Virus record (IMG/VR): IMGVR_UViG_3300045988_007604
Span: 1 to 40,869 of that record
Source: a virus
Strand: one strand, 5' to 3'
Length of the DNA: 40,869 nucleotides
This document shows, in pieces, positions 29,269 to 40,869 of the stretch; position 1 is the first letter of the stretch, and each line of letters starts with the position of its first letter. The position numbers were made by a program, and so were the translations under genes. The notes below the pieces were generated by a model that made no database searches, was not told where the DNA came from, and worked only from the letters and a program-made list of their open reading frames with translations.

Positions 29269-29501
29269 TTCCTCCTTTACTTAATTTTTCATTCAAGCTG
29301 AATGCCAGCTCCCCGATATTTTCTTCACCGTCAAGCCCCGTCGAGCAATTTCCGGGTGGTCGTGCCTTTTACATGGGGATGGATACCCAATACCCAGAGC
29401 CATAAAAGCGGGGGCGCTCATATTGTCACGGTGTTTGCCCTGCCATCATCAGCGCCGGTGGGGCAGTTCCGGTGGACGGCCTTTTCAGACCGTTTCGGCT
29501 A

Positions 29502-32308: not shown

Positions 32309-33031
32309 ATGGATTCAAATACAGGCCAAACATTCATCGAGGAAATGCAGCCGAATTTCGATGCCCTCCCGGAAAGGCTGAAAGACGAGAAATTCAGGAA
32401 TCATCTGACGAACCAGCAGCTTTCTGACGTGTCCGGCGTTCCCATCGCCACCACAAGCCGGATTCTTTCCGGTGCCGTATCGAACCCCGGCTTTTTCCAT
32501 ATCGCCGCGCTGTGCGCCGCTATGGACGTGTCAATGGATTCCGTTGCAGGTGTTCACCCAAGCGGAGATCAGGCGGAAATAGACCAGCTCCGGCAGGAGA
32601 TAGCATACAAGGACGAGATAATTGCCGAGAAGGGCGCGGCGATAGACCGCCTACTGGACAGGAGCCGCATTATGGAGGCTGGTGTCGCGGCCAGAGATGA
32701 CCGCATCAGCAAGCAAAGCGAAGCCCTTTCTAAAAAAGACAGTGCGCTTGCATCCGTGCAAAGGGAAAATAAGCCCTTGATTTACGGGCAGTGCGCATTA
32801 AACATTCTGCTGACGGCGGTACTCATGATCTATATGGTGCTGGACGCCCGGAACCCGGAAATGGGGCTAATTCGCTCCGAAAAGATTTCTGCGGTAATTT
32901 TAGTTGGCGCGGCAGGAATCGCCGCCGTTTTTATGCTCACGGCATTTTTGATTTTCCACAAGCTATTAAGTGGAGGTGAACGGGATGGCAAAAAGAAAGA
33001 AGGAGCCGGAAATCAGGCTCCCAAAAATTAA
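32309..33031 (+). CDS. Membrane-anchored XRE-type HTH protein (HTH + coiled coil + two TM helices)
   Basis: 240 aa from ATG 32309 (RBS AGGAGGGCGAATT). HTH LTNQQLSDVSGVPIATTSRILSG, coiled coil DQLRQEIAYKDEIIAEKGAAIDRLL, TM segments ALNILLTAVLMIYMVL and AVILVGAAGIAAVFMLTAFLIF. Overlaps the int start. Confidence 0.7.
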   Translation: MDSNTGQTFIEEMQPNFDALPERLKDEKFRNHLTNQQLSDVSGVPIATTSRILSGAVSNPGFFHIAALCAAMDVSMDSVAGVHPSGDQAEIDQLRQEIAYKDEIIAEKGAAIDRLLDRSRIMEAGVAARDDRISKQSEALSKKDSALASVQRENKPLIYGQCALNILLTAVLMIYMVLDARNPEMGLIRSEKISAVILVGAAGIAAVFMLTAFLIFHKLLSGGERDGKKKEGAGNQAPKN

Positions 33032-34085
33032 GCAGCTCCCATCCGGGGCGTGGCACACACGTGTATTGATAGAGAATCGCCGCGTATCCATTACGAAAGA
33101 TACATATGATGAATGCGTGGCCGAATATCTGGCCTTGAAAAACGGCCTTGTGGAAATCCGCGAGAAGAAAGACGGGAAAGACATCACGCTAGAGGAAGCC
33201 GCCAAAAGCTACATTGCATCGAAAGAGGGCTTTCTCTCCCCATCCACCATTGCCGGGTACGAGAAGTTCAAGCGGAATATGCTGCCAGGCATGATGAAGC
33301 GGAACATTTTCACAGTCTCCAATGACCAATGGCAGGCCGCTATCAGGCAGGAACACAAGGCCGGGAAATCCCCGAAGTATATCAAAAATGGGTGGATGTT
33401 CTTTTCCGCCTGCATCGTCGCCGCCGGTGCTCCGCGCCCGGAGGTGATGCTGTATCCCCCGGAACACAACGAACGGGCATACCTCACGCCGGACGAGATA
33501 GATAAGTTTGTGGAGGCTATAAAAGGCCACCGATTTGAAATCCCGTATCTGATGTGCCTTTCCTCCCTGCGCCGTTCGGAAATGATCGCCATGGACTGGG
33601 CAAACATAGATCTGGAAAACAAAGTGATGCACGTTCGCGGCGCAATCGTCATGGGGACGGCTGGGCTTGTGCAGAAGCCACAAAACAAAACGGCGAAGTC
33701 CCGCCGCTCTGTGCCTATCATTCCGCCGCTTCTGGAAGCGCTGAAAGCGCAGGAGCAGAAGACCGGAAACGTGGTAAAGGCAAGCGCAGAAACCATCTAC
33801 AATAATTTGGGCAAAGTCTGCGCCGCCGCTGGAATCACCGTGGTTGATCTGCATGGGCTGCGCCACAGCTTTGCATCTCTGGCCTACCACTTGCAAATTC
33901 CGGAAATGATCGCCGCCGAAATCGGCGGGTGGAGTGACTTGTCTACCATGCACAATATCTACACGCACCTCGCCCAGAAAGATATTGCCAAACGCTCAAG
34001 CGACTTCTGCGACTACTTCACCGCCGAAGCGATGAAAAAGCGCAAATTGGCAACGGAATTGGAAACGAAAAATAAAAGTTACTAG
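32985..34085 (+). CDS. int: Tyrosine recombinase / phage integrase
   Basis: 366 aa from ATG 32985 (RBS GGAGGTGAACGGG). Catalytic-domain motifs LSSLRRSE (Arg), HGLRHSFASL (H-x-x-R) and MHNIYTHL (Tyr). Directly followed by the tRNA-fragment attP. Confidence 0.9.
   Translation: MAKRKKEPEIRLPKIKQLPSGAWHTRVLIENRRVSITKDTYDECVAEYLALKNGLVEIREKKDGKDITLEEAAKSYIASKEGFLSPSTIAGYEKFKRNMLPGMMKRNIFTVSNDQWQAAIRQEHKAGKSPKYIKNGWMFFSACIVAAGAPRPEVMLYPPEHNERAYLTPDEIDKFVEAIKGHRFEIPYLMCLSSLRRSEMIAMDWANIDLENKVMHVRGAIVMGTAGLVQKPQNKTAKSRRSVPIIPPLLEALKAQEQKTGNVVKASAETIYNNLGKVCAAAGITVVDLHGLRHSFASLAYHLQIPEMIAAEIGGWSDLSTMHNIYTHLAQKDIAKRSSDFCDYFTAEAMKKRKLATELETKNKSY
34041..34069 (+). repeat. Direct repeat copy 1 (two tandem ATTGG(C/A)AACG units) at the integrase 3' end, left of the attP core
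   Basis: cgcaaattggcaacggaattggaaacgaa. The first 17 nt are identical to 34281..34297, and the rest differs by one indel and one mismatch. Confidence 0.8.
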
Positions 34086-34114: not shown

Positions 34115-34141
34115 GGGGTTCGATTCCCCTCGGCTCCACCA
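34115..34141 (+). other. attP core: 3' end of a tRNA gene (T-arm + 3' acceptor strand + CCA)
   Basis: GGGGTTCGATTCCCCTCGGCTCCACCA has a T-loop TTCGATT flanked by GGGG/CCCC, then CGGCTCC, A and CCA. There is no 5' tRNA half upstream, which is integrase coding sequence. Immediately downstream of int. Confidence 0.75.
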
Positions 34142-34308: not shown

Positions 34309-34322
34309 GCCCGGGACTATCT

Positions 34323-34355
34323 AAAATAAAAGATGCACCTTTTGGCGCATCTTTT
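34323..34355 (-). terminator. Terminator (functional on both strands) at the end of the acidic-protein/HTH cassette
   Basis: Minus strand AAAAGATGCGCC-AAAA-GGTGCATCTTTT (12 bp including one G-U) followed by ATTTTAG. It starts right at the stop codon of the HTH gene. Confidence 0.7.
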
Positions 34356-34698
34356 ATTTTACGGGGGGATCAAATAGCCCCAAGCACTGCTGCATCAATA
34401 ATCTAGTATATAGCGGGCATTCTCGCACGCCCCGGCACCAGTCTTCCACAGTCCGGCGTGGGATGCAAAAGTGTTCTGCAAATGCTGCCTGTGTCATGCC
34501 CGCAGCGGAAACGATCTCCCGCACGGTACGGGTTGCGGCGGTATAGATGGCGCGCAGCTGATCCAACCGGTCGGGTGGAATGGGCGAATCTGGCGCATCG
34601 TCCCAGATGTCGGACAGGGACAGGCCGGACACGTAGGCGTCCGGGTCGGTGTAGGTTGCGCACTCCCGGGCGCAGGCGGCGAATTGGGTATCAGTCAT
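34354..34698 (-). CDS. HTH protein (C-terminal XRE-like HTH), Aca-like candidate autoregulator
   Basis: 114 aa from ATG 34698 (8-nt overlap ATGACTGA with the upstream gene). HTH MTQAAFAEHFCIPRRTVEDWCRGVRECPLYTRLLM. The ORF-track extension was trimmed. Confidence 0.65.
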   Translation of the reverse strand: MTDTQFAACARECATYTDPDAYVSGLSLSDIWDDAPDSPIPPDRLDQLRAIYTAATRTVREIVSAAGMTQAAFAEHFCIPRRTVEDWCRGVRECPLYTRLLMQQCLGLFDPPVK

Positions 34699-34996
34699 TG
34701 CCGTCGCCCTCATCGATCTTTTCTTCATGTGCCAACGCGGCTTCGCAGTATTCACCCCACAGCCTGTCGCACGTGGCGTCGAACCACTCGGCGAATTCGG
34801 TGTCGTCCATGCCTGGATCAAAATCGATCGGGCCGACGACCTCGGAAAACTCCGGGTGCCAGTCCAGGCCGATGCGGACGATCTCGTCGGCCAATTTCTC
34901 CACGAACGCATCCCTGTCGTGTTCCGACAGAAAATCGAGCTCGTTGATTCGAATATCACCATATTCAGCAGACTTAAAAAATACCTTGTACGTCAT
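34691..34996 (-). CDS. Highly acidic 101-aa protein (candidate DNA mimic / anti-defence protein)
   Basis: Counted 29 Asp+Glu versus 8 Lys+Arg. RBS GGGGAAGGGG. First gene behind a consensus promoter that carries an operator palindrome. Confidence 0.6.
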   Translation of the reverse strand: MTYKVFFKSAEYGDIRINELDFLSEHDRDAFVEKLADEIVRIGLDWHPEFSEVVGPIDFDPGMDDTEFAEWFDATCDRLWGEYCEAALAHEEKIDEGDGND

Positions 34997-35083
34997 TTTT
35001 ATACCCCTTCCCCCTGGGCTGCGGCCCAGGTAAAACCATTGTTTTAATTAGTGCTTATCGGGGTGTACCCCTTAAGCGCCTTT

Positions 35084-35112
35084 ACTATACCACGCAATGC
35101 GTGGGATGTCAA
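35084..35112 (-). promoter_or_regulatory. Consensus promoter TTGACA-17-TATAGT with a 15-bp perfect palindrome (CCACGCAATGCGTGG) in the spacer
   Basis: The minus strand reads TTGACA (35112..35107), spacer 35106..35090, TATAGT (35089..35084). The palindrome spans 35090..35104. About 80-nt leader with GC hairpin CCTGGGC-TGCG-GCCCAGG (35013..35030) before the RBS. Confidence 0.7.
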
Positions 35113-35206: not shown

Positions 35207-35539
35207 TCAATCATTTAGCCGCCGCATAATCGCCGCGTATTCTTTTGGGTATATCAGCCGAACGCACTCCATGTGTTCGTCCATCACTTCTAATAGCCGT
35301 TTCATTCCCGCTGAATTTGCAGCAATTGCAAACTCGCTCCCGGATATTTCATCACTCTGCGGTGCAGGAGCGGAGGAATACAGGCTTACGGGGGAAACAT
35401 CAGCAGCGCGGGAATGTTCCGGAAACATATGATCTAGAATTGTATAGCATGAGGCCATCAGCTGGCATGTTGCCGCCGTCGGGCGCTTCACTGCTTTACA
35501 TTCTTCGATTGTTTCCAGCAAATCCCGCTCTGCCAACAT
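35207..35539 (-). CDS. Hypothetical helical protein (110 aa), last gene of the cargo operon
   Basis: RBS GGAGGATTAAAAA. No motif recognized. Helical ends flank a Ser/Ala/Pro-rich linker. Confidence 0.6.
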   Translation of the reverse strand: MLAERDLLETIEECKAVKRPTAATCQLMASCYTILDHMFPEHSRAADVSPVSLYSSAPAPQSDEISGSEFAIAANSAGMKRLLEVMDEHMECVRLIYPKEYAAIMRRLND

Positions 35540-35542
35540 TTT

Positions 35543-35926
35543 TTAATCCTCCATACAACGGACGGCCTTTTCTAGAGCCTCTCGCGTCCGGCTATCCGGC
35601 GCTTCATCAATCATGCGCCGCAGCTTATCCACCATATCTTCCTTGGCGTCTGCGCGGCTGTACCGCCCCATGCTATCGCGTTTACGGCCTCGGTAGCTCA
35701 CGCCGTCGCGGTAGTCGGCTCTATAGCCATCCCGTCCATAGTTGCCCATGGCGTACCAGTCCCCGGCACTGCTGTATCCTTCACCCATCATAATCTTATC
35801 CAGATTCTTCATGGTGTGCGTCAGCTTGTCCACGGTTTCCAGATCACCGGCGGACAGTTCGCCTTTTTCGGCGATTTCGTCCAGTTCCCGGCACAGTGTA
35901 TCTCTCAACTGTTCCCAGTGCTTCAT
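35543..35926 (-). CDS. Hypothetical protein (127 aa) with helical ends and a central Gly/Tyr/Arg/Asp-rich low-complexity segment
   Basis: RBS AGGAGGTGAAATT. Central segment GEGYSSAGDWYAMGNYGRDGYRADYRDGVSYRGRKRDSMGRYSR. Confidence 0.6.
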   Translation of the reverse strand: MKHWEQLRDTLCRELDEIAEKGELSAGDLETVDKLTHTMKNLDKIMMGEGYSSAGDWYAMGNYGRDGYRADYRDGVSYRGRKRDSMGRYSRADAKEDMVDKLRRMIDEAPDSRTREALEKAVRCMED

Positions 35927-35937
35927 AATTTCACCTC

Positions 35938-36372
35938 CTAGGCCACGCGCTCAATCATCAGATTGGCGTTGGCAACATCGATTGCCTGCGTGGAGACATT
36001 GCGCACGGATAACGCTACGCAGCACCCACGGGGAACATCCACAAACGCGGAAGTCGCCACGTTGAATGCATCTCCCACGGCGGCGGGTGTTGCCGTCGCC
36101 GTAGTGGTGGGAAGCGCTTCACCGCCCAGCGCCAGCGCTACGCTGATAGCCCCGGCGGTGCCACCGGTAGGCACGGAGATATTTCCCACGAAAAGCACGC
36201 GATACCGCGCAATTGGGGAACATCCGCTACAAACGCCCCGCAGGGTGACAAGGCCAGCCCCGTCACGGTGAACAACATACCCCCGGCCGCATTTCACCGG
36301 CGTATCGGTAAACAGCACGTTCTGTCCGGCCGCCACGGCCTGTACAGCGTTCGCAGTAAGTTCAACCGCCAT
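35938..36372 (-). CDS. Hypothetical beta-rich protein (144 aa), possible C1q/TNF-like (BclA C-terminal-domain-like) jelly-roll
   Basis: RBS AAGGAGGGGAGAGC. Alternating hydrophobic beta pattern: LTANAVQAVAAGQNVLFTD opening, LMIERVA ending. Cys pairs CSGC and CC. Fold assignment is pattern memory only. Confidence 0.5.
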   Translation of the reverse strand: MAVELTANAVQAVAAGQNVLFTDTPVKCGRGYVVHRDGAGLVTLRGVCSGCSPIARYRVLFVGNISVPTGGTAGAISVALALGGEALPTTTATATPAAVGDAFNVATSAFVDVPRGCCVALSVRNVSTQAIDVANANLMIERVA

Positions 36373-36384
36373 GCTCTCCCCTCC

Positions 36385-37185
36385 TTACGCTACGTTTCCG
36401 CAGCCGCAGCCGTAGCCGTTACCGTAGCAGCAGTTAGGATTCTGCACCTGATAAGCGGGAACCGGGCGGGGATTGTAGTACGCGAACTGGTTCTCCACAT
36501 AGCCCTTGATCGTCAGGTTCTGGGCATTCTGGCTCGCCGCCAGCTGCGCCATGAACAGTTGCTGATTCTGATCGGCGATTTTCTGATCCTTTGCCGCCAG
36601 CTCCTGTGCGGTAAGCCGCTGGTCGATGGAGCGGAAACCACAGTTCATAGCGTCGATGATATCCCGGGTGGTGTTCTGTACCGTGTTCCGGGTTTCGCAG
36701 CTCTGGGTAGCCAGATTGTAGTTCACGCCCTGAATAGCGGCGCGGTTTTCGCAGCAGCACTCCTGATTTGCCATCTGCATCTGGAAAAGCTGCTGCATCA
36801 AGGCAGCCTGCTGATTGCACCGGGAAAGCTCTGCCGCCTGGAAACCGTTGCTGATATTCTGGTTCACGCCTGCAAACCCATTCAGCATACCGGTATTCAT
36901 GGCGTAGAAGCCGTCGCAGACACCGTTGTTCACGCTGTCAATTTTCCGCTCGATGTTGGAAAAATCAGACGCGAGAACATACCCGTCCACCACGCCAGCG
37001 CCGGAACCACGACCGCCAAAGCCTCCGCCCCAGCCGTTACCGCCCCAGCCAAAGAAGCCGAAGATCAGGAAAATGATGATCCATGCAGACCAATCACCGC
37101 CCCAGCCTCCGCCATAGCCGCCGTTGTTGCCATCGGTGACAGCTCTGATATCGGCGGGGGTCATTTCGCTTGCTGTAATACTCAT
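36385..37185 (-). CDS. Hypothetical membrane protein (266 aa): Gly/Trp-rich TM N-terminus, Gln/Asn-rich coiled-coil body with Cys clusters, CCYGNGYGCGCGN tail
   Basis: RBS GAAAGGAGAACAAA. N-terminal GGYGGGWGGDWSAWIIIFLIFGFFGWGGNGWGGGFGG resembles YjcZ-type tiny Gly-rich TM sporulation peptides. Internal CCC and C-terminal CC..C.C. Confidence 0.55.
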   Translation of the reverse strand: MSITASEMTPADIRAVTDGNNGGYGGGWGGDWSAWIIIFLIFGFFGWGGNGWGGGFGGRGSGAGVVDGYVLASDFSNIERKIDSVNNGVCDGFYAMNTGMLNGFAGVNQNISNGFQAAELSRCNQQAALMQQLFQMQMANQECCCENRAAIQGVNYNLATQSCETRNTVQNTTRDIIDAMNCGFRSIDQRLTAQELAAKDQKIADQNQQLFMAQLAASQNAQNLTIKGYVENQFAYYNPRPVPAYQVQNPNCCYGNGYGCGCGNVA

Positions 37186-37239
37186 TTTGTTCTCCTTTCA
37201 AAAGATGAAAAATATAACAAAATCTGGCCAGATTATTGT

Positions 37240-37452
37240 TTACCTTCTAGGCGCTCCGAAGCCGAACATGCCCCGGAATTGCTCAAACTGCCCCTGCATC
37301 TGCTGTGCCATTTGCTGGGCTTGGTTAAGCTGCTGCTGGTTTACACGCCCGCTCTGTACAAGCTGATTAAGCAGTTGCTGCGGGTCTTGCCCCCTCATCT
37401 GCTGCATAAATTGGGGGAATTGGGAAATCATCTGCATAGGATTAGGCGTCAT
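37240..37452 (-). CDS. Gln-rich small protein (70 aa)
   Basis: Counted 21 Gln in 70 residues (QFPQFMQQMRGQDPQQLLNQLVQSGRVNQQQLNQAQQMAQQMQGQFEQF). The start overlaps the upstream gene by 11 nt. Confidence 0.6.
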   Translation of the reverse strand: MTPNPMQMISQFPQFMQQMRGQDPQQLLNQLVQSGRVNQQQLNQAQQMAQQMQGQFEQFRGMFGFGAPRR

Positions 37453-37864
37453 TGCGTTTTACCTCCGCTTTCTTGGCATCGCGTTTTCCATCCGTCAGCT
37501 GATTCAGCCGTTCCTCTACAGCGGAAAGCCGCTGCTCAAATCCCGCACTGACTGCCTCCGGGGTAGCTCCTGCGTCCCGGATTTTGTATTCATACGCTAC
37601 AATTGGCATTGGTCGCCCTTGCGCGTCTGTCCGCTTTTCGTAGAATACAGGCTTGTTGCTGTCCCAGAGCCGCACAAATCCGTTTGCCGTGACGATAAAC
37701 GCCTCCGCCGCAGATTCCGAAGCTACCCAAATTCGGTCATCAAGGGGCGGCTGTTGGGGTTGTGCGGGTATCTGCGGTTGCCCGATTGGCATTTGCGGCT
37801 GGAAATAGTTGGGCTGAAAATAGCCGGATTGGTAGTTGGGCTGCATATAAGGGTTTGCCATCAT
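37442..37864 (-). CDS. Hypothetical protein (140 aa) with Pro/Gln/Tyr/Asn-rich N-terminus and a small globular domain
   Basis: N-terminus MMANPYMQPNYQSGYFQPNYFQPQMPIGQPQIPAQPQQPP, then IWVASESAAEAFIVTANGFVRLWDSNKPVFYEK. ATGA overlap with the upstream gene. Confidence 0.6.
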   Translation of the reverse strand: MMANPYMQPNYQSGYFQPNYFQPQMPIGQPQIPAQPQQPPLDDRIWVASESAAEAFIVTANGFVRLWDSNKPVFYEKRTDAQGRPMPIVAYEYKIRDAGATPEAVSAGFEQRLSAVEERLNQLTDGKRDAKKAEVKRNDA

Positions 37865-38241
37865 TCACGCCTCCAAAAATAGATAGGATTTTCGTCCATT
37901 GAGTTCCAAGTATCGTACAAAACGCCGTTTTCCACGGCAACAACGTGGTTTTTCAGCGCGACAACGTAGATCCCGTCAGGGTATTCCCGGATAAAATCGC
38001 CTACGGTATAGCAATCCGGGCATTCCGCCGGGATTGCCGCCCGCCTGAATCCGTGCCGCCGTAACACCGCACCCCATACGTTATTTGCGCTAGGCATATC
38101 GCATTGAGTCAGCCCCTCGCTGGCCAGCTCAACGTAGGATTGGTACCAGTCAATTCCCAGAGCCTTTGCCACAGCTCTGACTGCGCAATCGCCGACTTTC
38201 GCGGCGCGGGGATTTGGATTAAAGCTTTGAAATTCAGCCAT
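37861..38241 (-). CDS. Hypothetical protein (126 aa) with conserved GDC..RA motif, first gene of the cargo operon
   Basis: ATG 38241 (RBS AAGGGGG; the ORF-track start at 38247 is a TTG). Motifs KVGDCAVRAVAKALG, PSANNVWGAVLRRHGF, CPDCYTVGDF and YDTWNS. Confidence 0.6.
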   Translation of the reverse strand: MAEFQSFNPNPRAAKVGDCAVRAVAKALGIDWYQSYVELASEGLTQCDMPSANNVWGAVLRRHGFRRAAIPAECPDCYTVGDFIREYPDGIYVVALKNHVVAVENGVLYDTWNSMDENPIYFWRRE

Positions 38242-38272
38242 AGGCAACGCCCCCTTTCTTCCTATAGAATAA

Positions 38273-38313
38273 CAAAAAAGTCGGTAGGGAAACTCTCGTT
38301 TCCCTACCGACTT
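38273..38313 (-). terminator. Strong rho-independent terminator separating the lysis/regulator genes from the cargo operon
   Basis: Minus strand GTCGGTAGGGAAAC-GAGA-GTTTCCCTACCGAC (14 bp perfect, extendable by two A-T pairs) followed by TTTTTTG. Confidence 0.85.
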
Positions 38314-38339: not shown

Positions 38340-38576
38340 TCAGAAGTCTATGTTTTTTGGGAGTATGTAGCTATACTCCTGCACACTGTTATAGGAGTTT
38401 TTCAACTTCCTAATGTACCTATCTAATGTGGCAAGGGACATGCCGTAAGCGTGGCACTGCTGTACACGGCTCCATCCGGCGGCTCGGGTGCGGATGATCT
38501 TTTCCTCCAGCGGCGTAAGAATCGCCAGGGAACAGAATTCATCCAGAATCACCCGATTCCACGGGACTTTATCCAC
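38340..38576 (-). CDS. Small sigma-region-4/LuxR-like HTH regulator
   Basis: 78 aa from GTG 38576. LTPLEEKIIRTRAAGWSRVQQCHAYGMSLATLDRYIRKLK is HTH-like. No strong RBS seen. Confidence 0.5.
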   Translation of the reverse strand: MDKVPWNRVILDEFCSLAILTPLEEKIIRTRAAGWSRVQQCHAYGMSLATLDRYIRKLKNSYNSVQEYSYILPKNIDF

Positions 38577-39465: not shown

Positions 39466-40080
39466 TCAGCCGTTCCACCGGCTGTATTTTCCGTTGTCCT
39501 CATGAATGCCCCAGCTGTACAGCCCCAGACCGCCCCGCCCGGGGATTTTCTCGGCCTGCACCTCCTGGGCTATGGCATAAAGCTTCTCCGGGGAGATAGC
39601 CCCTGAGAGGTCTGCGGCCTGCCCCGTGGTGTGCAGGGAGTTGGATACCCCGCCCACCTCGGCATTGTGCCGCTTGCACCTCACCCCGGAATTCACATTC
39701 AGGGGAACCCCAGCCCGACGGCGTATCTCATCGGCCATGCGGACGGTTTCCTCTGCGGGCTCTGCGGGGAAGCCGTTGCAGTATTTCCCGCCGCACTGGC
39801 ACCGGAATTCCTCCCGGGTGAAATACTCGATATCATCCCAGAACGTCCCGGTCTTTGGCGCTGTGCTGTCCTCCGGCTTTTCCACCTTTACCGCCGTCCC
39901 GGCAATGGCACCGATGAGCATTTTCTGGGTAGCCGCACCCGGTATCCCATCCACGGTAAGCCCGTAGTCCGCCTGAAACACCCGGACAGCTCCCTGGGTG
40001 TTCCTGCCCTCAATGCCGTCAATCGAGCCGGGAGAATAGCCCAGATAGGTCAACAGGCATTGGATTTGCTTTACCGTCAT
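39466..40080 (-). CDS. Endolysin: N-terminal peptidoglycan-binding domain + C-terminal peptidase M15-type (zinc D-Ala-D-Ala carboxypeptidase-like) domain
   Basis: 204 aa from ATG 40080. The PG_binding_1 pattern is LLTYLGYSPGSIDGIEGRNTQGAVRVFQADYGLTVDGIPG. The M15 pattern is FRCQCGG...SGVRC..HN..VGG...SLHTTGQAADL. Confidence 0.85.
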   Translation of the reverse strand: MTVKQIQCLLTYLGYSPGSIDGIEGRNTQGAVRVFQADYGLTVDGIPGAATQKMLIGAIAGTAVKVEKPEDSTAPKTGTFWDDIEYFTREEFRCQCGGKYCNGFPAEPAEETVRMADEIRRRAGVPLNVNSGVRCKRHNAEVGGVSNSLHTTGQAADLSGAISPEKLYAIAQEVQAEKIPGRGGLGLYSWGIHEDNGKYSRWNG

Positions 40081-40526
40081 ACGTTCACCTCTTCCCAGCC
40101 CTGGGGGTATGCGGACGGCGACCATACATTATTGTCCAACGTGGAGCGGTACACTTTACCGCCCTCCGCGCAGCAGTCTCCCTTATTATAGGGGCTGGTG
40201 GACATGGCGACGAATGGCAACGCTTTTGCTGGATCGGTGCTCCAAGCAAACCCCCACTGTGCAGGAAGTTCCTCTGGCTCCTGGGTGTAGATAGTGCTGT
40301 CATAGGGCTGCACTAGCCGCACCACACGGCCAGCAGACGATTGGCACACAAACCCGGCCTTGCGCTCCAGCATGTTTTTGTTTGCGACAGCAGCCTTGAA
40401 ACTGGGAATGTCGCTATCCGTCGCGTACAGTTCGGTGCCTGTCATGTCCGGGGCTTTCTCCTGCAAGGCAAGCGCGTTCGCCCGCCCCTGGGCATACATG
40501 ATGCTTTTTCTTTCCTCTTGTGTCAC
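40077..40526 (-). CDS. Hypothetical protein (149 aa) with CBM5/12-like C-terminal motif
   Basis: GTG 40526 start (GTGA overlap with the upstream mini-ORF). The C-terminal YNKGDCCAEGGKVYRSTLDNNVWSPSAYPQGWEEV fits the Y.aGd.V...G.vY......WsP....W pattern of CBM5/12 modules. Confidence 0.55.
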   Translation of the reverse strand: MTQEERKSIMYAQGRANALALQEKAPDMTGTELYATDSDIPSFKAAVANKNMLERKAGFVCQSSAGRVVRLVQPYDSTIYTQEPEELPAQWGFAWSTDPAKALPFVAMSTSPYNKGDCCAEGGKVYRSTLDNNVWSPSAYPQGWEEVNV

Positions 40527-40645: not shown

Positions 40646-40869
40646 GCTTTATTCACCCCCAGAGCGGTTTCGATTTCAGACAATGCCGATTCGTATTCGG
40701 CATTCTTCTTCAACGCCTCTTCCAGCGGGGTGAGGATTTCCACACCATCCCGATAGAATTTACCATTGCTGTAGGTATCGCCGATAGCCACGGGGCGGTC
40801 TGCGGGGTTGATTAGGGATTCAGTTTCAGGCTCGGAATCGGAGCACCACAGCATGTTGGCAACTACTCC
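40642..40869 (-). CDS. C-terminal part of the junction-spanning 86-aa protein (see 1..110)
   Basis: The ORF-track entry 40642..40854 starts at an internal Met. The frame stays open to the window end and joins 78..110 through the duplicated 77 nt. Confidence 0.7.
   Translation of the reverse strand, partial: GVVANMLWCSDSEPETESLINPADRPVAIGDTYSNGKFYRDGVEILTPLEEALKKNAEYESALSEIETALGVNKA
40793..40869. repeat. Terminal direct repeat, copy 2 (identical to 1..77)
   Basis: See copy 1. Confidence 0.95.

Follow-up and report, generated by a model that had tools for sequence, protein, structure and literature searches.

The virus record IMGVR_UViG_3300045988_007604 of IMG/VR, analysed here as one stretch of 40,869 nucleotides (nt; hereafter the window), carries on its minus strand a set of seven consecutive genes, named g1 to g7 in order, which lies between the lysis genes and the phage attachment site (attP) and is preceded by a small gene for a helix-turn-helix (HTH) protein. 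This cassette is a real, conserved unit, which keeps its gene order while moving between otherwise unrelated phages. We favour, with a probability of roughly 0.4, the reading that it is a mobile, self-regulated cassette of eight genes, which would act very late in the lytic cycle and build a membrane-anchored complex rich in Cys and Gln. The cassette consists of the following features (aa, amino acids).

38340-38576, minus strand: gene for a 78-aa HTH protein (HTH_29, E = 0.007)
38268-38313, minus strand: upstream hairpin resembling an intrinsic terminator, between the HTH gene and g1
37861-38241, minus strand: g1, 126 aa
37442-37864, minus strand: g2, 140 aa
37240-37452, minus strand: g3, 70 aa
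36385-37185, minus strand: g4, 266 aa
35938-36372, minus strand: g5, 144 aa
35543-35926, minus strand: g6, 127 aa
35207-35539, minus strand: g7, 110 aa
35162-35189, minus strand: downstream hairpin at the operon end, 12 bp, GC-rich, z = -4.0

All seven open reading frames that a first-pass annotation had placed here are present, and the same seven products (126, 140, 70, 266, 144, 127, and 110 aa) were called by independent gene callers on six public contigs. That annotation had counted five strong Shine-Dalgarno sequences and two coupled starts; the two start/stop overlaps are there (the g1 stop and g2 start share ATGA, and g3 starts 11 nt before the g2 stop), but the count of five is exceeded, as a GGAGG-like Shine-Dalgarno sequence precedes all seven genes. 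The upstream terminator, to which a 14-bp stem had been assigned, is real and stronger than claimed, with a 16-bp stem (38278-38313), a 4-nt loop, and a run of six T (-30.8 kcal/mol, z = -8.6). The downstream hairpin is also real, but as a terminator it is missing from the list of a consensus terminator scan, because its T-run is not adjacent to the stem once the A/T stem extension is counted. No promoter with both sigma-70 hexamers was recognised after the upstream hairpin in the window, in agreement with the annotation; the hairpin is followed by an extended -10-like element, TGTTATTCT, and then by the Shine-Dalgarno sequence of g1, and this element is the only promoter-like one within 35 nt before the g1 start.

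None of the seven proteins gave a match above noise in Pfam, NCBIfam, PADLOC, or the PDB sequences, and none of their PHROG families has an assigned function. The earlier impression that no product resembles a virion, lysis, or replication protein is thus borne out, and no defence family was matched either. The composition had also been described correctly, namely 30% Gln in g3, a Pro/Gln-rich g2, and a g4 rich in Cys and Gly/Trp. The g4 product is the only membrane protein of the cassette, and no signal peptide was seen in the other products when their N-termini were read by eye, so that all of its partners are expected to be cytoplasmic unless released by lysis.

A conserved unit that moves between unrelated phages

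An IMG/VR scan with g4 returned at least 600 stretches, of which at least 597 were confirmed relatives, and tblastn of the seven proteins was run on 80 retained loci (numbered with the prefix L). The order g1-g2-(g3)-g4-g5-g6-(g7) is identical in L001-L069 and L077, where identity is about 37-78% for g1, g4, g5, and g6 and lower for g2 and g7, and the lysin, holin, and integrase of the window phage mostly have no BLAST match in the same loci. Hidden Markov models (HMMs) built from the cassette sequences, which also recover g3 and g7, detected at least five of the seven families in about 36 of 80 loci from genomes or metagenome-assembled genomes (MAGs), mostly assigned to Clostridia (Oscillospiraceae, Lachnospiraceae, Blautia, Dorea, Ruminococcus, Subdoligranulum, Enterocloster, and others). 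The first-pass annotation had proposed that the genes form a functional unit and had named a lack of co-occurrence outside this phage as the observation that would speak against it; the families do co-occur, and in the same order far beyond this phage.

The families are also very large. At 90% identity, g5 comprises at least 7941 clusters and g1 at least 8000 clusters (2941 clusters at 50% identity for the latter); at least 1000 public contigs encode a g1 protein fully identical to that of the window, and 378 blocks of the collection contain an identical g4 protein. The sole name given to family members is "hypothetical protein [Caudoviricetes sp.]". Thousands of phages of gut and rumen Clostridia share the same-order unit.

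Among cultured strains, the cassette was found in the assemblies of Enterocloster hominis CLA-SR-H021 and Agathobaculum desmolans ATCC 43058. Searches of INPHARED with g4, in both nucleotide and protein form, returned uncultured phages only; Butyrivibrio virus Ceridwen (MN882553.2), a cultured rumen siphovirus, surfaced only via g1 and g5. Ceridwen, which together with B. fibrisolvens DSM 3071 makes up a cultured pair, carries the full cassette after its endolysin gene (HMM E-values 2e-51 to 6e-18), in the order endolysin, a 64-aa holin-like gene, an overlapping 73-aa HTH gene, an annotated terminator, g1-g5, a 264-aa gene, g6, and g7. The Ceridwen proteins of the cassette have the accessions QHJ73765-73772. 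For the Cys-rich 264-aa gene inserted between g5 and g6 (QHJ73770; L238 10929-11723), the annotation goes no further than a similarity to a hypothetical protein of Acinetobacter phage AP22; the gene may be a selfish insertion.

The content of the cassette varies among loci. Both g1 and g7 are optional, and in 32 loci the position of g5 is taken by a Cys-rich beta protein of 129-145 aa without detectable g5 homology; a remote relationship of g5 to this protein as found in L075, L209, and L231 was rejected (hhalign probability 0.9%). Longer variants of g6 exist, one of which (L209) shares the g6 N-terminal segment (hhalign probability 94%), and a DUF7841 protein occupies the g6 place in the L075 group. 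Literature searches returned nothing on DUF7841, and a relationship of g6 to g7 or to the DUF7841 variant was rejected, as hhalign gave no signal. Compared with the window, the cassette of L010 is 99-100% identical except for g2, which is only 69% identical (a 131-aa versus a 140-aa allele), indicating allelic exchange within the cassette.

The cassette is usually located at the very end of the late (tail and lysis) genes. Among about 35 diverse loci, the genes upstream mostly encode tail-fibre domains (Collar, Collagen, LRR_5) and endolysins (PG_binding_1, GH25, Amidase_2/3, M23, M15, and CHAP); CI-like repressors lie downstream, and an integrase is found within 4.5 kb in 18 of the loci (13 tyrosine, five serine). 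The lysis-to-att location is the commonest arrangement, though others occur. In L209, a Blautia prophage, the cassette lies between capsid/head-tail-connector genes and downstream putative tail genes, and in L231 (Enterocloster hominis) between a Mu-F-like minor head protein and scaffold/capsid genes. The L209 prophage has no g1, and two small HExxH proteins (HELVHAF and HEITHVV; L209 12246-12996), possibly zinc metallopeptidases as judged from the motif, directly follow its cassette.

The neighbouring features of the window are as follows.

39466-40125, minus strand: endolysin gene (PG_binding_1 and Peptidase_M15_3)
Minus strand: holin gene (Phage_holin_1)
34691-34996, minus strand: gene for a 101-aa acidic protein, between the cassette and attP
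34354-34698, minus strand: gene for a 114-aa HTH protein (phrog_25567), between the cassette and attP
34322-34361: 18-bp hairpin, which closes the two-gene att-side pair (34354-35112)
34115-34141: attP core, 27 nt (TGGTGGAGCCGAGGGGAATCGAACCCC), identical to the 3' end of the host transfer-messenger RNA (tmRNA) gene
32970-34085, plus strand: tyrosine integrase gene
Plus strand: gene for a CI-like HTH protein

Positions 1-77 of the window are identical to 40793-40869, and this exact 77-nt end overlap indicates a circular assembly, so that the window represents the complete genome, about 40.8 kb, of a gut phage. On the minus strand, tail genes are followed by the endolysin gene, a gene whose small product has a hydrophobic stretch at its C-terminus, a DUF6275 gene, the holin gene, and the HTH gene. 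The attP core was mapped via the contig L233, where the same phage is integrated in a chromosome and which shares with the window g7 and two further genes; its homology to the window ends at 34115, within the 3' end of a tmRNA gene (13044-13393 of L233, ARAGORN) beside smpB, which identifies 34115-34141 as the core. With the endolysin and holin families identified as well, the proposed lysis-to-attP location is confirmed, with a distance of about 1 kb from the cassette to attP. Within this interval, a strong, near-consensus sigma-70-like promoter (TTGACA-17-TATAGT with TG, 35084-35112) drives the att-side pair. This pair resembles a classical prophage-expressed moron more than g1-g7 do; in L038 and L042, a homologue of its 114-aa HTH gene is placed upstream of g1 instead. 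The host is judged to be an uncultured Oscillospiraceae bacterium, from the DXS cluster name and from the closest g4 homologue, which lies in a Dysosmobacter MAG. In the early-gene region, Rfam Hammerhead_II matches 29434-29500 on the minus strand over the full model (1-66/66), at 37.3 bits versus a gathering score of 37 (E = 3.7e-4), a borderline but complete match.

Predicted properties of the cassette proteins

The g1 protein (phrog_3754, E = 4e-30) appears, from its predicted structure, to be a minimal papain-like protein and is a putative cysteine peptidase. Cys19, His99, and Asp110 are invariant in 62 sequences, and a C74-P-x-C77 motif is also invariant. In the AlphaFold2 (AF2) model (predicted local distance difference test, pLDDT, 95), the invariant Cys is borne by an N-terminal helix and the His and Asp by a C-terminal beta-sheet. 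The fold matches are weak, the best being Josephin-2 (E = 0.027) and the C39 domain of ComA (3k8u, E = 0.15), with TM-scores of 0.44-0.45. Natural g1-g2 fusions (P0529, full length, and P0548; 272 and 228 aa) and tandem double-g1 proteins (P0489 and P0547; 299 and 354 aa) were found, and the long g1 homologues contained no other domain fusion. Stand-alone homologues with 29-36% identity are encoded by Tsamsa-like Bacillus phages, where they are annotated as "putative peptidase", by Geobacillus phage GBK2, and by Prevotella Lak megaphages; the rest of the cassette is absent from these phages, and the neighbours of the homologues in GBK2 and Bacillus phage Tsamsa are all hypothetical proteins.

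Two activities were considered for g1. Cleavage of a double-glycine leader on g4 was rejected, because the N-terminal motif (L/M)(S/T)PADI.AVT is confined to some g4 subfamilies and is likewise present where g1 is missing. Transglutaminase activity on the Gln-rich g2 and g3 is conceivable, but the top 50 fold matches listed include no transglutaminase.

The g2 protein (phrog_21718) begins with a P/Q/Y-rich tail (10 Pro and 10 Gln in the first 41 residues), continues with a small conserved domain (IWV..E..A..LWD..PV.Y.K..D..G.P), and ends in a charged, coiled-coil-like segment. It has no match in PDB or Pfam, and a GerQ-like identity was rejected, as TIGR02728 gave no match. In the jackhmmer search, the g2-like proteins of L075 and L209, although divergent, were linked to the g2 family across 216-217 loci, showing that g2 accompanies g4 in nearly all loci examined. 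The g3 protein (phrog_22984, E = 3e-19) has an isoelectric point of 11.8. The g6 protein (phrog_28802) appears helical in its N- and C-terminal segments, around a low-complexity core of R/D/Y/S/G with RDSMGRYSR-type motifs, and g7, an accessory member, is acidic and likewise helical-looking (Ceridwen homologue, E = 4e-30).

The g4 protein (phrog_16490, E = 2e-47) is probably the membrane anchor of the assembly. It consists of an acidic N-terminal tail (net charge -2.4), a single Gly/Trp-rich transmembrane segment (residues 21-65 hold 20 Gly and five Trp), and a long, conserved domain rich in Q/N/A, which spans about 190 aa. This domain has an invariant CCC, further Cys residues that are conserved, and a cluster of Cys and Gly at the C-terminus; the protein has 11 Cys in total, and K/R are slightly commoner after the transmembrane segment. 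The first-pass annotation had called it YjcZ-like, which is not supported, as g4 has no NCBIfam match at E <= 1 (TIGR01732). The GC content is 0.589 at 36001-37000 (g4-g5) compared with about 0.51 in the adjoining kilobases, which is compatible either with the Gly/Ala-rich products encoded there or with a foreign origin.

A membrane protein with cytoplasmic partners could also serve superinfection exclusion, defence, or counter-defence, in which it would block other phages or host immunity. The cassette is mobile, mosaic, and variable, with alternative modules, and exclusion and defence genes often lie at the lysis-integrase junction, as the cassette does. Against this, the best PADLOC score, for g4, is E = 0.021 (PD-T4-6), which is no match; the proteins have no nuclease, NTPase, or sensor domains, eight structural-looking, low-complexity genes are unlike known exclusion systems, and the centre of g4 is strongly conserved rather than diversifying. 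We consider such a function improbable.

The g5 protein (phrog_20016, E = 2e-51) is a stand-alone protein of 144 aa with an invariant GCC motif, and its fold, according to the AF2 model, is the TNF/C1q jelly roll, which spans the whole protein (pLDDT 89, predicted TM-score 0.84, 65-sequence alignment). The best Foldseek match in the PDB is the C-terminal domain (CTD) of F-BclA (9h38, E = 9e-8, TM 0.74), followed by BxpB (8d02), ExsFA/ExsF (7r1m and 9h3d), and BclA (1wck and 3tyj), and then by TNF ligands; the exosporium structures match at TM 0.70-0.75 and E-values of 9e-8 to 1e-5, with only 12-16% identity. The knob of the phi812 phage spike ranked 49th. The nearest neighbours in BFVD (TM 0.80-0.86) stand alone, measure 130-145 aa, and come from uncultured sipho-, myo-, and podovirus-like contigs of the gut; one bears the name "BclA protein". 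C1q/collagen fibre proteins were also matched there. Thus, the guess of a BclA-C-like beta domain was right as far as the modelled structure is concerned. The resemblance to exosporium proteins is limited to the fold: g5 has no match at E <= 1 in Pfam (BclA_C, C1q) or the NCBIfam exosporium families, the profiles of g1, g2, g4, g5, and the alternative beta protein found nothing among PDB sequences, and the Pfam models of Ena (DUF3992) and F-ENA (DUF4183) match neither g5 nor the Cys-rich beta proteins of L075, L209, and L231.

This fold bears on the function first proposed for the operon, i.e., that it is lysogenic-conversion cargo, expressed by the prophage, perhaps from a sporulation promoter, and forming an exosporium- or coat-like layer or an appendage on the cell or spore. 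The structural matches of g5 to F-BclA-CTD, BxpB, ExsFA, and BclA suit that proposal, as do the Cys-, Gln-, and Gly-rich products without signal peptides, the position beside attP here and beside an integrase in about half of the diverse loci, the hairpins that insulate the cassette from the late operon, and the assignment of most carrier contigs to Clostridia. There is also a precedent for exosporium genes on mobile elements, namely on B. megaterium plasmids (PMC4674009); literature searches on prophage-encoded exosporium genes returned precedents only and no description of the present genes.

Several observations stand against it, the strongest of which come from Ceridwen. Only lytic growth of this phage was observed; no excisionase was found, and its authors regard it as probably virulent (PMC7372960), no integrase is annotated in the Ceridwen stretch read, and Butyrivibrio is a non-spore-forming genus (PMC6249431), so that the presence of the full cassette in Ceridwen weakens the lysogenic-conversion and spore reading. 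The cassette also lies among head genes in L209 and L231, its HTH gene overlaps the holin gene, and no promoter was recognised for it in the window. At the sequence level, none of the families sought (sporulation, coat, BclA_C, DUF3992, DUF4183, and YjcZ) was matched at E <= 1; the cassette has neither a collagen-like partner nor an exosporium leader, and no Bacillus or Clostridioides phage of INPHARED was found to carry g4 or g5. We therefore regard a lysogenic-conversion or spore-structure function as doubtful, though it retains more weight than any other alternative.

The knob-like fold could also belong to a virion-associated accessory, such as a head or tail decoration or an adhesin, encoded by an unusual structural module after the lysis genes. 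TNF/C1q-like knobs are common at the fibre tips of phages and giant viruses, the cassette has the orientation of the late genes in every case and in some cases lies within the structural cluster, and it is present in Ceridwen, a phage for which only lytic growth was observed. But g4 contains a transmembrane segment, virions do not typically include such low-complexity proteins, and the cassette has its own regulator and hairpins. It occurs in sipho-, myo-, and podovirus-like contigs, no PHROG structural annotation is attached to its families, and a fixed structural role is hard to square with g1 and g7 being optional and with a non-homologous protein standing in for g5. A place in the virion is therefore unlikely in our estimation.

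The regulator gene and the favoured reading

The 78-aa HTH protein is probably the regulator of the cassette, judging from its position and from the matches of its counterparts. In the window, the GTG start of its gene overlaps the end of the holin gene, indicating that the regulator gene belongs to the late lytic operon. A small HTH gene (68-87 aa) precedes the set in nearly every locus inspected; of 199 loci, 141 have one upstream of g4, and in L042, L067, and Ceridwen it was recognised by eye. As the HTH gene travels with g1-g7, the unit comprises eight genes. The arrangement of holin gene, overlapping HTH gene, hairpin, and g1-g7 is common to the window and Ceridwen, two phages with almost no other similarity. 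The positional homologues match region 4 of sigma-factor PHROGs (phrog_1190, E = 8e-7; phrog_3512, E = 1.5e-5), and their matches to Sigma70_r4_2 and TIGR02937 are below the family cut-offs.

Of 46 diverse loci, 16 have a terminator-like hairpin no more than 200 nt before g1, as does Ceridwen, and 20 have one after the last cassette gene; the hairpins before g1 are unrelated in sequence. Chains of at least four direct repeats with a spacing of 10-11 bp precede the first cassette gene in 11 of 67 loci compared with none of 67 shuffles, with the caveat that some matches spaced by 9 or 12 nt fall in coding sequence and possibly reflect codon periodicity. In L199, L161, L065, L203, L166, and L071, four to five direct hexamers with 11-nt spacing are located between the small HTH gene and the cassette (e.g., GGGCAG x4 and TTGACC x4), and their sequence varies among lineages. 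Such hexamer arrays are likely binding sites of a regulator.

A holin-like gene, a sigma-like regulator, and products without signal peptides, in that order, might also suggest cargo that is released at lysis and acts outside the cell, whether bacteriocin-like, matrix-forming, or directed at the animal host; the resemblance of g1 to the C39 bacteriocin-processing fold and the TNF-like fold of g5 point in the same direction. But the regulator has the size of region 4 rather than that of a full sigma factor, no ABC transporter, immunity gene, or conserved double-glycine leader accompanies the genes, the match of g1 to C39 is weak (E = 0.15), and g4 is membrane-anchored. Released cargo is the least probable of the explanations considered.

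In the very late lytic reading, which we favour, the last part of the late operon would yield both the holin and the HTH protein, and the latter would then control the expression of g1-g7, making them the last set switched on in the lytic programme. The switch might operate through read-through of the hairpin, or through HTH-dependent activation of a promoter that abuts the hairpin and has no -35 element. The products are presumed to assemble at the cytoplasmic membrane into one multiprotein structure, with g4 as the anchor, its Cys-rich domain probably facing the cytoplasm, and g2 and g3 as its Gln-rich partners. A trimeric knob would be provided by g5, or in other lineages by the non-homologous Cys-rich beta protein; g6 and g7 would serve as helical adaptors, and g1 would process or cross-link g2. 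The structure would benefit the phage at or after lysis, e.g., by receptor masking, phage exclusion, or aiding release, rather than form a spore layer.

Several points weigh against this proposal. The HTH protein of the window itself is weakly recognisable against known families, and the direct repeats of the window are poor (TGATAG/TGAAGG/TGATTG). Antitermination by way of direct repeats overlapping the 5' hairpin arm was rejected, since such overlaps occurred in four of 26 distinct hairpins versus 0-3 of 26 in controls. The topology signal of g4 is weak, with charge statistics that lean slightly towards an orientation with the N-terminus out and the C-terminus in. In about half of the diverse loci, an integrase lies at most 4.5 kb downstream, and insulation by hairpins would equally be expected of a prophage-expressed moron. 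The best structural matches of the g5 model are spore-surface proteins, and spore coats typically have Cys-rich proteins without signal peptides. Ceridwen possesses an XRE repressor and an antirepressor (PMC7372960), and may thus be a defective temperate phage. Both the timing of expression and the assembly are things we infer.

In a bolder version, the phage would build an exosporium-like layer, a shell or matrix cross-linked through Cys and Gln, nucleated by g4 on the membrane, and studded with TNF-like g5 trimers. As infection ends, this layer would coat or embed cell ghosts, vesicles, or progeny virions, and in sporulating lysogens it might coat the spore; g1 would be the maturation or cross-linking enzyme, and the region-4-like protein the very-late switch. 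We consider this a long shot, but if true, the layer would amount to a protective package similar to an occlusion body.

The seven "hypothetical" families are among the commonest accessory genes of gut Clostridia phages, and specialists may be surprised that so common a cassette remains unexplained. A unit that passes between unrelated phages, and that is retained even where only lytic growth was observed, must be of general use in the infection of Clostridia. It could represent a new late step of phage infection (envelope remodelling, receptor masking, progeny packaging, or exclusion), and possibly a new regulatory device built on a protein that resembles sigma region 4 only. As the cultured pair of Ceridwen and B. 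fibrisolvens DSM 3071 carries the cassette, the question is directly testable.

Comparison with known systems

No described system has this gene set, and none of the seven families has an assigned function. The closest structural relatives of g5 are BxpB and ExsFA, stand-alone proteins of about 150-170 aa with the same jelly-roll topology as g5, which is likewise stand-alone and of similar size (about 145 aa; 8d02, 7r1m, and 9h3d; TM 0.73-0.75). These proteins and the BclA CTDs are also made without signal peptides. F-BclA-CTD was described as a trimeric, TNF-like tip domain, and ExsF as binding the leader peptides of collagen-like proteins (PMC12357932). The cassette differs in that it has no collagen-like GXX repeats, no exosporium leader, and no partner with such a leader, and in that it is phage-encoded, including in one phage of a non-spore-forming host. 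What g4 has in common with the tiny, Gly-rich YjcZ-type membrane proteins of sporulation (TIGR01732) is Gly-rich sequence beside a single hydrophobic helix (residues 21-65 of g4), whereas g4 is a protein of 266 aa with a Cys-rich domain of 200 aa that is lacking in YjcZ.

As for the peptidases, the papain-like C39 and Josephin enzymes gave the only fold matches of g1, and the spacing of C19/H99/D110 is near that of Cys17/His96/Asp112 in ComA. Unlike C39 peptidases, g1 has no Pfam match (PF03412, PF13529) and no transporter fusion, and it bears the extra CPxC motif; no ABC transporter was found beside it in the window or the related loci, and no conserved Gly-Gly leader substrate either.

Morons and lysogenic-conversion cassettes at the lysis-att junction, such as lambda bor/lom and the staphylococcal immune-evasion clusters, resemble the cassette in their location, since it lies between the lysis genes and attP, is flanked by hairpins, and is exchanged horizontally. 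Morons have a promoter and a terminator of their own; the cassette has hairpins at both ends, but no two-hexamer promoter was recognised and the extended -10-like element is the only candidate. In contrast to morons, its regulator gene overlaps the holin gene, and eight genes in conserved order are a large set for a moron. Furthermore, the cassette does not appear to be confined to temperate phages, as Ceridwen, for which only lytic growth was observed, carries it in full, and it is also found inside structural clusters.

The clostridial loci that combine a sigma factor, a holin, and cargo (TcdR-TcdE-TcdA/B and UviA-UviB-BCN5) differ from the cassette in three respects: the cassette regulator has only 68-87 aa, corresponds to region 4 only, and falls below the family cut-offs instead of being a full-length sigma factor; the holin is part of an ordinary lysis cassette; and the cargo is unrelated. 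What these loci share with the cassette is the arrangement of a holin-like gene beside a sigma-like regulator, followed by products without signal peptides.

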